Shown: piece by piece, positions 26,214-27,750 of the stretch
How the letters are laid out: the number at the start of each line of letters is the position of its first letter
Position numbering within the stretch: the first letter of the stretch is position 1
Virus genome (UHGV): UHGV-0014912
Reading direction: 5' to 3' (one strand)
DNA length: 33,704 nt
DNA from: a virus
Notes under the pieces: generated by a model
Told to the model about the DNA's origin: nothing
Seen by the model: the letters and a program-made list of their open reading frames with translations, nothing else
Database searches by the model: none
Translations under genes and position numbers: made by a program

Positions 26214-27110
26214 TCAACTCCGCATTGCTTTATTCCAATCAATATTGTGACCAGCAGCTTCAAGTTCTCGTGCGAGTGCTTGCTTCCAGCCTCCACTGCT
26301 ATCCATATTTTCCCAAACAACCCCAGCAAAATCACTTGGAATATCTAGTGAGCCGCGTTTTAGTGCACATACTTTCTCTCTGCCTAAACGCCCGATAAAA
26401 TATCCTAATTCTAGCATTACATTCTGCCTTGCCCTTGGTTCTGGTATTCCTCCTTTAGCACAACCTTCATCATCTGGTGTTAGCAATACAACAGCAAATC
26501 CAACATCACTATTTGCTATAACTTTCTCAATGACAGTTCGTCCCTGATTAGCTTGCTCATGTAATATGATTGCTTCTAAACCTATACGTTCAAGAAACCT
26601 TGCGACTGTTTCACGGGCGCCATCATCATGACCATGAACAATGAAAACTTTGTTCGAAAACTGCGGCTTCAACATAGTTTCTGTGCTTCCCTTAGACTGA
26701 ACATAATTTTTGTAATCTCTAACGAAAGGAATGATAAGTTGTCCTGTAATCGAATGAATGCCTGCTATAATTTTACTTCCGGAATAGAAAAAATGATGTC
26801 CAAAGTTGATTGCATAATTAGGATCTTCTGCTAACTTAAAAATCAAAAGTAATGTAAGGCCTAGTGTTTTTCTTGCATCATCTGGCCAGACAAGCTGGGC
26901 ACTCCCAGCCATACTTCCTCCAGTCTTCTCACTTTCTGCGAGAAACTCTGTAAGATTGAGTCCTTCAGTCAGGTCTGCATTGTATGATTCAAGATCGGAA
27001 TGTTTTAGAAGCTGAGCAAGCTTTTTGAGTGGACGTTCAAAGGTCTGGTATTGTGAAGCCTGTAAATCCAGAACAGCATTGTTAATTTCAGAAAAAATAT
27101 CTTGAGCCAT
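26214..27110 (-). CDS. TIR-like (CAP12/PycTIR-type) domain protein with an unrecognised N-terminal domain; candidate defence effector
   Basis: 298 aa; C-terminal motifs KVFIVHGHDDGARETVARFLERIGLEAIIL, FAVVLLTPDDEG, RARQNVMLELGYFIGRLGREKVCAL, PSDFAGV fit the bacterial TIR-like nucleotide-binding domain pattern; N-terminal ~155 aa unknown. Confidence 0.5.
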   Translation of the reverse strand: MAQDIFSEINNAVLDLQASQYQTFERPLKKLAQLLKHSDLESYNADLTEGLNLTEFLAESEKTGGSMAGSAQLVWPDDARKTLGLTLLLIFKLAEDPNYAINFGHHFFYSGSKIIAGIHSITGQLIIPFVRDYKNYVQSKGSTETMLKPQFSNKVFIVHGHDDGARETVARFLERIGLEAIILHEQANQGRTVIEKVIANSDVGFAVVLLTPDDEGCAKGGIPEPRARQNVMLELGYFIGRLGREKVCALKRGSLDIPSDFAGVVWENMDSSGGWKQALARELEAAGHNIDWNKAMRS

Positions 27111-27397
27111 TACTCATCCTCACTTGAAGTCAATCTGGCTTCGGCAGCATTTTTAAGAATGCCTTCTCTGTATGTTTCCTTCATCTGCTGCGCAAGCGAG
27201 CCGACTATGGAGTTGGTTGAACATCCGCCAATGCGTTCATCAATCATGTGATTAACTGTTTGAATTGCCGACTCGATGCTAGCAGGGTCGTTAGGGTTAA
27301 ACTTTACGACTCCTAGCTCGCCATCCAGCTCACTCAGTATACGCTTTGCATCCTTGAGTTCTTTCTGAAGCTTATCAAGACCAGTAACTTTTAACAT
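27110..27397 (-). CDS. Small hypothetical protein coupled to the TIR-like gene (possible sensor or antitoxin partner)
   Basis: ORF track start at 27409 is TTG; ATG at 27397 has a GAAGGTG RBS; stop overlaps the TIR gene start (TAATG). Confidence 0.35.
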   Translation of the reverse strand: MLKVTGLDKLQKELKDAKRILSELDGELGVVKFNPNDPASIESAIQTVNHMIDERIGGCSTNSIVGSLAQQMKETYREGILKNAAEARLTSSEDE

Positions 27398-27750
27398 ATG
27401 CACCTTCAATTATCAATTTAATCAGTACGTTACGGGGTTTAGTTGTTGCTTGCTTAGTCTGGCTATTGATCACGTATGAATGCTCTATTTTGAAGCCTCA
27501 ACCAAATTTTCTCAATAGTGTAAAGCTATTATCATTTTCGAGTTTCCTTCGATATCACATTCTAAGATGAACATTGCTAATATTACTCACATCTAAAAAA
27601 ACGGATTTGTTTACATTATCCTAACAAGACTTCGTTGAGTCGTAAAAAATTATAACAAAATCTATGTAGACTAAGCTGATGGTGTTAATTACATATCTGC
27701 TTAGTCCGATTCATCAACTTGATGCTGTTCAAATTAGATAATATAAATTT

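Follow-up and report, generated by a model that had tools for sequence, protein, structure and literature searches.

The viral genome UHGV-0014912, analysed here over a window comprising the whole 33,704-nucleotide stretch, carries on its minus strand a pair of overlapping genes that are probably an abortive-infection defence cassette. In this interpretation, a 95 amino acid protein of the YuaX family and the helical N-terminal domain of a 298 amino acid protein (hereafter N-dom) would be responsible for sensing or regulation, and the C-terminal TIR domain of the larger protein would deplete NAD+. Representatives of this cassette reside in defence islands and on mobile elements, and in relatives of the larger protein the TIR domain is replaced by other types of toxic effector.

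Architecture of the locus and its TIR domain

The gene for the 298 amino acid N-dom–TIR protein spans positions 26214..27110 and is preceded by the yuaX-family gene at 27110..27397, both on the minus strand. The yuaX stop codon and the start codon of the TIR gene are combined in the sequence TAATG, and the two genes thus share one base. An earlier reading, made from the sequence alone, had proposed these two ORFs and their overlap, and both are indeed present where it placed them, with a single change. When read from a TTG codon, the upstream ORF covers 27110..27409. Its 28 aligned homologues all begin at the position of an ATG codon at 27397 (MLKVTGLDKLQ...), and this alignment sets the start of yuaX and a product length of 95 amino acids.

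The cassette lies between a terS-like gene (25329..25877; phrog_57, E 1e-20) and a T4-lysozyme-like gene (27751..28236) that flanks it on the upstream side. These flanks, and the AT-rich character of the upstream DNA, agree with the moron-like location described by the sequence-only reading. The intergenic region that extends from the lysozyme gene to the cassette (27398..27750, minus strand) has a GC content of 0.29-0.33; the value is 0.29 for positions 27500-27799, compared with 0.40-0.44 inside the module. Within this region, the sequences TTGAGA and CAAAAT, separated by 17 nucleotides, match the promoter consensus at nine of 12 positions (27487..27515, minus strand). A block of about 50 nucleotides surrounding this site can also be recognised upstream of the Serratia copy of the cassette, and to a lesser degree in the case of Pectobacterium. 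Unfortunately, such sites are no more common in the region than in shuffled sequences, and promoter and terminator scans of the region likewise performed no better than on shuffles, and we consider the site a weak candidate for the cassette promoter. No match to a regulatory RNA in Rfam was found in the upstream region.

Compared with the copies in other hosts, similarity at the nucleotide level ends at approximately position 27417, and the homology between copies at this level is limited to the two ORFs. We could not find an empty insertion site in a related prophage because the same seven E. coli genomes hold both the flanks and the module. The cassette in this window is most likely prophage cargo that is self-contained and horizontally mobile.

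A CAP12/Pycsar-type TIR domain is formed by residues 151-298 of the larger protein (26214..26660 including the stop codon, minus strand). All four motifs from which the C-terminal half had been called TIR-like (VFIVHGHDD, VVLLTPDDEG, RARQNVMLELGYFIGRLGREKV and PSDFAGV) are found in the translation, and the assignment is borne out both by profile and by fold. Residues 154-270 match positions 1-118 of the 119-position Pfam profile PF10137 (CAP12-PCTIR_TIR) with an E-value of 4.8e-38 and a score of 130.3 bits, relative to a gathering cut-off of 24.7 bits. The PADLOC models for the CBASS TIR effector and PycTIR, as well as NCBIfam models, also match this half of the protein. Its sequence matches the solved Cap12 chains 9lmq and 7un8, and the structure comparison that had been suggested as a check, conducted by using Foldseek with an AlphaFold2 (AF2) model, returned the TIR-STING structures 9lmq/7un8 and SPARTA TIR-APAZ as top matches. 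The resemblance to TIR domains is not due to chance.

Residue E234, whose codon is located at 26409..26411 on the minus strand, aligns with the glutamate of the NVVFEFG motif in the solved Cap12 chains. It is among the residues that are invariant in 20 diverse members of the family, the others being V158, H159, G160, D213, D214, R228, N230 and G236. These observations suggest that E234 is the putative catalytic glutamate of a TIR active site, and that the domain is presumably an NAD+-hydrolysing effector.

YuaX, N-dom and the exchange of effectors

The small partner protein had no significant match in PADLOC, NCBIfam, PHROGs or our copy of Pfam, which did not include family PF27363. We assign it to this family, named YuaX and lacking a described function, on the basis of close homology, because its homologues down to 57% identity all bear the precomputed PF27363 annotation. 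The small genes located beside the TIR gene in other genomes carry the same label. AF2 predicts that the protein consists of three helices (pLDDT ~85-92), and it lacks enzymatic or membrane features. YuaX gave no match to a DNA-binding family. A phage origin of YuaX, considered because of a resemblance to HK97 gp10-like tail-completion proteins, is unsupported, as only two of the 29 members examined match phrog_5, with E-values of 0.14 or worse. Nine of the same 29 members give weak matches to phrog_31119, whose function is unknown (best E 0.003).

N-dom corresponds to residues 1-150 of the larger protein (26661..27110, minus strand). It is predicted to be all-helical and is presumed to be a sensor, a regulator or an oligomerisation module. 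Its conserved residues include G69, S70, W75, P76, R131 and D132. The domain belongs to no Pfam family and matches neither the AbiJ models of PADLOC nor STING or SAVED domains. Sequence and profile comparisons of YuaX and N-dom with solved structures gave no match with an E-value below 0.08, and a search of viral structures in BFVD with their fold gave nothing significant. This is in line with the previous impression that the partner and the N-terminal half are without characterised relatives, here judged against Pfam, PADLOC, NCBIfam and solved structures. A profile search with N-dom of an index of 5.8 billion proteins returned mostly fragments and yielded no further information.

The coupling of YuaX to N-dom is obligate-looking, both by adjacency and by fusion. 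Among 58 YuaX loci in species-representative genomes, 51 have an ORF encoding N-dom no more than about 30 nucleotides downstream of yuaX; the remaining seven lack a detectable N-dom, and some distant N-dom relatives (e.g. P0376) have no upstream YuaX. There are also about 20 representative protein clusters in which YuaX, N-dom and an effector are naturally fused in a single chain, and P0296 and P0303 are examples whose effector is a TIR domain. When YuaX was joined to N-dom and modelled with AF2, the result had a pLDDT of 92 and a pTM of 0.74 (only 0.63-0.74 over the models). The relative placement of the two parts is that of a single-chain model of an artificial concatenation.

N-dom remains constant among its relatives, and the domain that follows it varies. 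In addition to the CAP12-type TIR, the list includes a SpbK/ThsB-like TIR_2 domain, a DUF4145 HEPN domain, a Ymh HEPN domain that matches Aga_HEPN and PD-Lambda-3_B, a PDC-S05-like segment, and tails with transmembrane or glycine-zipper segments. Both DUF4145 and Ymh are HEPN families (PMC3710099). YuaX is also found upstream of genes encoding N-dom–DUF4145 and N-dom–TIR_2 proteins. The proposal that the two genes constitute a module is greatly strengthened by this swapping of effectors, by the natural fusions and by the adjacency of the genes, which is conserved in 51 of 58 species.

Distribution and competing explanations

Genes for yuaX and N-dom occur together in 51 species-representative genomes from Proteobacteria, Myxococcales and other groups. 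Homologues with 80-88% amino acid identity are found across Vibrio, Pseudomonas, Yersinia and Halomonas, and the pair on plasmid R64 is 51% identical over its full length. The R64-type variant is present in 317 of 5,426 complete E. coli genomes (~6%), where 319 of its 337 places are on plasmids, and 996 plasmid records in PLSDB carry the pair. When YuaX and N-dom were used in tblastn searches of 50,697 phage records, neither was found, and a megablast search of the phage collection with the whole locus returned no match. Therefore, the location of the module in a prophage says little on its own. The cassette is not a speciality of phages, but is found mainly on plasmids, integrative and conjugative elements (ICEs) and chromosomal islands.

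The neighbours of the pair are rich in defence genes. On R64 its neighbours are vapBC on one side and PifA on the other, and PDC-S06 and HEC-04 ATPases are encoded close by. In a P. aeruginosa ICE the pair adjoins a Thoeris-like pair encoding a ThsB-TIR and a caspase-like protein, and in Serratia and Vibrio it adjoins AAA_15/AAA_21 ATPases and ParDE. ICE copies sit among DUF932, ParB_N and DUF736 genes, which are types of genes whose neighbours in leading regions are often anti-defence genes. The TIR gene of E. coli PSS-15 is interrupted by IS2, and its yuaX gene is intact.

Several of these observations could be explained if the pair were an addiction module resembling type II toxin-antitoxin (TA) systems, which would stabilise the plasmid, ICE or prophage that carries it. 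The antitoxin would then be YuaX, a labile protein that blocks the TIR toxin by binding to N-dom, and the toxin would be freed once the element is lost. The layout, in which a small upstream gene overlaps a larger gene for a toxin-like protein, suits addiction equally well, and the abundance of the pair on plasmids, the adjoining vapBC on R64 and ParDE in Vibrio, and an IS2-split TIR gene next to an intact yuaX, as might be expected of a costly toxin, are all compatible with this role. However, stable single-chain fusions are ill-suited to an antitoxin that must be labile and separately degraded, the absence of a detectable DNA-binding domain in YuaX speaks against autoregulation, and the neighbourhoods are rich in defence genes and not in maintenance genes alone. 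We consider an addiction module unlikely as the main explanation, although a role in defence would not rule out a TA role.

Perhaps the pair could instead operate as a Thoeris-like signalling system, wherein the TIR domain makes a cADPR isomer and either YuaX or an unlinked protein serves as the effector. A large number of two-gene TIR operons have recently been assigned to Thoeris types, whose effectors are very diverse, and the screen behind this classification included PF10137 among its Pfam families (10.64898/2025.12.03.692087). However, the TIR domain here is of the CBASS/Pycsar effector type, which the same study treats as NAD+-depleting, and the HEPN and transmembrane tails that occupy its position in relatives are effectors rather than signal producers. 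Moreover, YuaX is a small three-helix protein without the features of an enzyme or a membrane protein, and the fusions place it upstream of N-dom in one chain with the TIR domain. A signalling role of this kind is consequently very improbable. Less probable still is a counter-defence or other phage-benefit function, such as removing host immune nucleotides or manipulating host NAD metabolism for the prophage, which could account for the moron position between the terS-like and lysozyme-like genes and for the DUF932, ParB_N and DUF736 neighbours on ICEs, but not for the lack of YuaX and N-dom in the phage records searched, the cell-killing effector types in relatives, or the fact that chromosomal islands and plasmid defence islands hold most copies.

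We therefore return to abortive infection as the favoured explanation. In the mechanism that we infer, which extends to the defence phenotype, the NADase activity, activation based on oligomerisation, and the existence and nature of a trigger, the three helices of YuaX and the helical N-dom would form a joint sensing or regulatory unit that holds the CAP12-type TIR domain inactive. A phage-derived cue would alter this assembly, most plausibly via oligomerisation, which would gather TIR domains such that active sites are formed. The TIR domains would then hydrolyse NAD+, and the infected cell would no longer support phage growth.

A broader hypothesis, which we put forward only tentatively, is that YuaX and N-dom may be the two parts of a portable phage sensor that has so far escaped recognition and whose scaffold is possibly a HEPN-like bundle devoid of catalytic activity. 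By being induced to oligomerise, this sensor might switch on any attached effector, be it a TIR NADase, a HEPN RNase or a membrane-disrupting tail. In that case, the form with a TIR domain might provide IncF/IncI resistance plasmids, ICEs and some prophages with an immune system that is common but has been overlooked. Known TIR NADase effectors always have an identified upstream sensor, such as a cyclase signal, a pAgo, an NLR or ThsB. Here, the sensor would be a new helical module that has a dedicated 95 amino acid partner and drives several other effector types as well. If the pair does defend against phages, this would matter for phage-therapy host range in clinical Enterobacteriaceae and would help explain the immune cargo of resistance plasmids. 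It would also provide a sensor-effector pair that is compact and modular, with a trigger that could be identified through the selection of escape mutants.

Comparison with known systems

Searches of PADLOC, NCBIfam, Pfam and PHROGs revealed no match to CBASS, Pycsar, Thoeris, PD-lambda, Rst or any further named system, other than at the level of the TIR domain and to the candidate PDC-S35. The latter is a single-gene candidate in PADLOC, and all five of its models match the TIR half with E-values from 1e-39 to 9e-71. The best model aligns profile positions 114-277 of 278 with residues 135-295, and therefore leaves the first 135 residues uncovered. The matches begin at profile positions 70-114, such that N-dom has no aligned counterpart in the N-terminal part of the models. 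Matches to PDC-S35 of the same kind, via the TIR half, were obtained with the R64 homologue and the fusion protein P0296. In addition, PDC-S35 is defined as a single gene without a partner, whereas there are two genes here. To our knowledge, PDC-S35 has not been validated as a defence system. The literature on PDC-S35, PF27363, yuaX and the RefSeq accessions yielded nothing on function. The sequence-only reading had termed the module undescribed, and this description holds for its function, but not for its components, given that the TIR half is matched by PDC-S35 and the partner has its own Pfam family.

The cassette shares TIR subfamily PF10137 with CBASS Cap12 and PycTIR, and Cap12 provides the closest solved folds to its TIR half. 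The glutamate motif is NVVFEFG in Cap12 and NVMLELG in the protein described here. The combination of an N-terminal sensor domain with a C-terminal TIR domain is also reminiscent of PycTIR. However, the sensors of CBASS and Pycsar are STING, SAVED or cNMP-binding domains, whereas a helical domain and a 95 amino acid partner take this place here. No CD-NTase or Pycsar cyclase was found by using PHROGs, PADLOC and Pfam among the scanned neighbouring ORFs or in other contexts of the pair, and the neighbouring ORFs scanned in the window encode no cyclase, SAVED, ThsA/SIR2 or STING, as had been noted previously. The NCBIfam equivalogs for CBASS Cap12 score just 36 and 31 bits against a cut-off of 450 bits, and only in the TIR part, and the PADLOC PycTIR model covers only residues 201-270 (E 1e-8), with no cyclase nearby.

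Thoeris systems combine a ThsB-type TIR with a signal-binding effector (SLOG, Macro and others). The TIR domain described here is of the effector type, and its partner is a 95 amino acid three-helix protein without a signal-binding or other known domain. Two additional candidates for related systems were rejected. The TIR domain of Serratia SDIC1 is N-terminal and has a different partner, and DUF4062 systems represent a different family.

A likeness of another kind is evident with modular Abi proteins of the AbiJ type, in which a helical N-terminal domain of ~140 amino acids is also constant and the C-terminal effector is variable. The partners of AbiJ-NTD1 include DUF4145, Ymh, HKD and a flavodoxin-fold NDT-like domain (Anantharaman et al. 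2013, PMC3710099). They are in part the same as the domains that follow N-dom (DUF4145, Ymh, TIR-like), and this likeness is one of design principle. A YuaX-like partner gene is not described in that paper, which covers AbiJ-NTD1 to NTD5.

Finally, the pair resembles type II TA systems in that a small upstream gene (95 amino acids) overlaps the gene for a larger toxin-like protein (298 amino acids), and in its residence on mobile elements. It differs from these systems in that no DNA-binding antitoxin fold was detected, and in that the toxin-like domain is a TIR rather than a nuclease or an inhibitor of translation. Fused TA-like defence proteins, of which CapRel(SJ46) is an example, offer a further parallel, since single-chain versions of the YuaX and N-dom pair exist as well.

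The gene pair and its prophage setting

The window is a prophage, with terL (18735..20630), tail genes and, at the prophage end, a large serine recombinase gene (30417..31922; Resolvase and Recombinase domains) that abuts the host gene ybiT. The same locus is found in seven complete E. coli chromosomes at 87-95% identity, including that of strain MS 115-1. The recombinase/ybiT junction (30417..33554; ybiT is a host ABC-F gene) also recurs in E. coli L3Cip3. A GntR-like regulator is encoded at 20776..21216, and terL is set apart from a terS-like gene (25329..25877; phrog_57, E 1e-20) by a 5-kb stretch with two homing-endonuclease-like genes (22091..22699, minus strand, and 23562..24008, plus strand), one of which has a NUMOD3 motif and a PADLOC HEase match and the other a GIY-YIG domain.

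The pair lies between the terS-like gene and a T4-lysozyme-like gene (27751..28236), where the sequence-only reading had placed it between terS and an endolysin. Also as described there, the two minus-strand ORFs, the yuaX-family gene (27110..27397) and the gene for the 298-amino acid TIR protein (26214..27110), share one base within TAATG. As called mechanically, the small ORF begins at TTG 27409. ATG 27397 is the start in 28 of 28 aligned YuaX homologues, which open with M-x-K-(I/V)-T-G-L-D-K-L-Q, and thus the true length is 95 amino acids, within the 95-99 originally proposed. Shine-Dalgarno-like purine runs precede both genes. The spacer upstream is AT-rich, as had been noted (GC 0.29-0.33 versus 0.40-0.44 for the module), and a promoter-like block of about 50 nucleotides (TTGAGA, 17 nt, CAAAAT; 27515..27487) is common to the Serratia copy and faint in the Pectobacterium copy. 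Some 55 nucleotides past the TIR-gene stop lies an inverted repeat with perfectly paired 8-bp arms (TTGGCTGC ... GCAGCCAA; 26130..26160, minus strand), a 15-nucleotide loop and no T-run, which was not called by the terminator scan.

Domains of the two proteins

Residues 154-270 of the larger protein match Pfam PF10137 (CAP12/Pycsar effector TIR; E 4.8e-38), and the PADLOC CBASS-TIR effector and PycTIR models and the NCBIfam Cap12 models match weakly over the same residues. Cap12 TIR-STING chains are the sole solved relatives by sequence, and the glutamate of their NVVFEFG aligns with E234 of NVMLELG. A Foldseek search with the AF2 model ranks TIR-STING and SPARTA TIR-APAZ first, and thus profile and structure searches agree on the TIR-like assignment made from sequence. 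Nine residues (V158, H159, G160, D213, D214, R228, N230, E234 and G236) are invariant in 20 diverse family members, so the enzyme core looks intact. Five models of PDC-S35, a PADLOC single-gene ‘phage defence candidate’, match the protein very strongly (to E 9e-71), only from about residue 135 on; a literature search found no paper mentioning PDC-S35.

The N-terminal domain (N-dom, residues 1-150) falls in the region of about 155 amino acids that the earlier reading did not recognise, and it likewise has no family match in Pfam, PADLOC, NCBIfam or PHROGs, nor is it covered by any of the newer precomputed Pfam families. AF2 predicts seven helices (pLDDT ~97). The glycine-rich loop at residues 63-78 (T-G-G-S-M-x-G-S-A-x-L-x-W-P-x-D) is conserved and is modelled with very high confidence despite having no regular secondary structure, and we speculate that it is a candidate binding site.

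YuaX has zero matches in the local Pfam, PADLOC, NCBIfam and PHROGs copies. A newer Pfam label, PF27363 ‘YuaX’, is carried by every homologue and takes its name from an uncharacterised gene found in plasmid gene lists. Three helices are predicted by AF2, and the invariant residues in the homologue alignment include G6, L7, G26, F33, S40-I41-E42, A44, K73, R77 and R88. In the PHROGs scan, nine of 29 aligned YuaX family sequences had weak matches to phrog_31119 (best E 0.003; function unknown) and five had matches to phrog_14708 (best E 0.0005), hinting at a possible distant phage relative; the window copy matched neither.

A constant front with exchangeable tails

The yuaX and N-dom genes form a single unit. 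Close homologues of YuaX and the TIR protein share contigs and have neighbouring locus tags. When one genome from each species was scanned with the YuaX alignment, 58 loci emerged, belonging to alpha-, beta- and gamma-Proteobacteria, Desulfuromonadaceae, Myxococcales and Acidobacteria. At 51 of them (local hmmsearch) an N-dom ORF begins within about 30 nucleotides of the end of yuaX, and 46 of these ORFs bear a CAP12-type TIR. The seven loci with no detectable downstream N-dom (L060, L061, L064, L065, L066, L068 and L069) are mostly orphans in Sphingomonas, Bosea and Falsiroseomonas; L060 has a 531-amino acid P-loop-like ORF about 350 nucleotides past YuaX. With N-dom as the only query, exhaustive HMMER searching yielded 255 representative clusters, and local domain mapping revealed about 20 natural single-chain fusions ordered YuaX–N-dom–X, with TIR as the tail in P0296 and P0303. 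An artificial YuaX–N-dom chain is also predicted confidently by AF2 (pLDDT 92, pTM 0.74); these values apply to the chain as a whole, and any interface between its two parts is putative.

The CAP12-type TIR is one of several domains found behind N-dom in relatives. The others are TIR_2 (matching SpbK and ThsB models), DUF4145, Hypoth_Ymh (also matching Aga_HEPN and PD-Lambda-3_B), a PDC-S05/NsnC-like tail and several short tails that contain transmembrane or glycine-zipper segments. YuaX is likewise the overlapping upstream gene of N-dom–DUF4145 (L007) and N-dom–TIR_2 (L010). HEPN families include DUF4145 and Ymh (PMC3710099). For N-dom itself, a HEPN-derived scaffold is possible but unproven. 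In the 411-amino acid N-dom–TIR protein P0325, the usual place of YuaX is filled by about 100 N-terminal residues (MIELLQKLEDLPLENG...EIEYHLTLLREAGLV) that are unrelated to YuaX and look like a winged-helix domain, and P0344 and P0383 have extensions of about 170 residues. Perhaps the front module, like the effector, is exchangeable.

A YuaX relative is present on 996 PLSDB plasmids, nearly always preceding a ‘nucleotide-binding protein’ gene. The pair of plasmid R64 (IncI1) is 51% identical over its full length; it is flanked by vapBC and PifA and adjoins PDC-S06 and HEC-04 ATPases. Among 5,426 complete E. coli genomes, 317 have an R64-type pair, at 337 places of which 319 are plasmid-borne. 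Neither YuaX nor N-dom was found by tblastn in 50,697 phage records, and the prophage location of the window copy is the exception, not the rule. Protein identity between hosts is 80-88% and nucleotide homology ends at the ORF ends (26213..27417), so the mobile unit is the two genes.

Serratia and Vibrio neighbours include AAA_15/AAA_21 ATPases and ParDE. An OLD/AAA_15-type ATPase gene lies directly 3' of the cassette in a Rhodocyclaceae MAG (L050, 7079..8944) and in Serratia plymuthica (L016, 9251..11567), where a 284-amino acid gene follows; these arrangements recall Gabija- or PARIS-like pairs. A P. aeruginosa ICE variant (L004, JAHZTU010017294.1) carries, about 4.8 kb downstream of its TIR gene, a ThsB-type TIR gene and then a caspase-like (Peptidase_C14) gene, together at 5770..6996. 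These look like a type IV Thoeris-like pair and suggest a cargo hotspot for defence genes.

Proposed function and comparison with known systems

Abortive-infection systems (CBASS, Pycsar, Thoeris) usually kill the cell through TIR, HEPN or membrane effectors. With such tails varying behind a constant front, the best reading is that YuaX and N-dom sense or regulate and that the tail is the weapon. Both the TIR NADases and the HEPN RNases require oligomerisation to form their active sites (TIR-STING, TIR-SAVED, SPARTA, HEPN dimers), making trigger-induced assembly the most economical mechanism. YuaX and N-dom would sense or regulate, a trigger would drive assembly of the complex and so form the effector active sites, and the TIR would act as effector. 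Defence by NAD+ depletion is our favoured reading, held with some reserve. In a related prophage of E. coli PSS-15 (L076, NZ_AP027709.1, 2267..4499), IS2 splits the N-dom–TIR gene into 191-amino acid N-terminal and 146-amino acid TIR fragments and leaves yuaX intact, which could reflect inactivation of a costly effector, or chance.

Both the order of the genes and their abundance on plasmids would suit a type II toxin-antitoxin or mainly addiction module; the stable YuaX–N-dom–effector fusions sit poorly with it and we consider it unlikely. Thoeris-like signalling is highly improbable for a module whose TIR is of the effector type and which lacks a signal-binding effector, and a counter-defence or other phage-benefit gene is about as improbable. 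We put the module forward as a candidate for abortive infection by a TIR effector, with a two-part sensor module that is new and widespread; the observation made from sequence is confirmed and its interpretation as a candidate anti-phage module supported. The claim that it is undescribed holds for YuaX, N-dom and TIR together as a system, whereas its halves had been flagged, the TIR half as PDC-S35 and the partner as Pfam YuaX.

Membership of CBASS and Pycsar was rejected: there is no cyclase among the scanned neighbouring ORFs, as had been stated, and no STING, SAVED or cNMP domain, and equivalog scores are far under cut-off. That of Thoeris was rejected on the type of TIR and the lack of a signal-binding effector. 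The 29 Thoeris types (10.64898/2025.12.03.692087), Serratia SDIC1 (an N-terminal TIR with a ubiquitin-ligase-like partner) and the DUF4062 systems Swarozyc and Evangelion are all different families. Swappable N-terminal domains are known in AbiJ-type proteins, where the helical AbiJ-NTD1 of about 140 amino acids is fused to DUF4145, Ymh or a flavodoxin-fold NDT-like domain (PMC3710099). The likeness to N-dom is one of concept, and that account mentions no small partner. Closest in working is a Cap12 or PycTIR effector, in which, as presumed for this module, a sensor domain precedes a TIR of the PF10137 subfamily.
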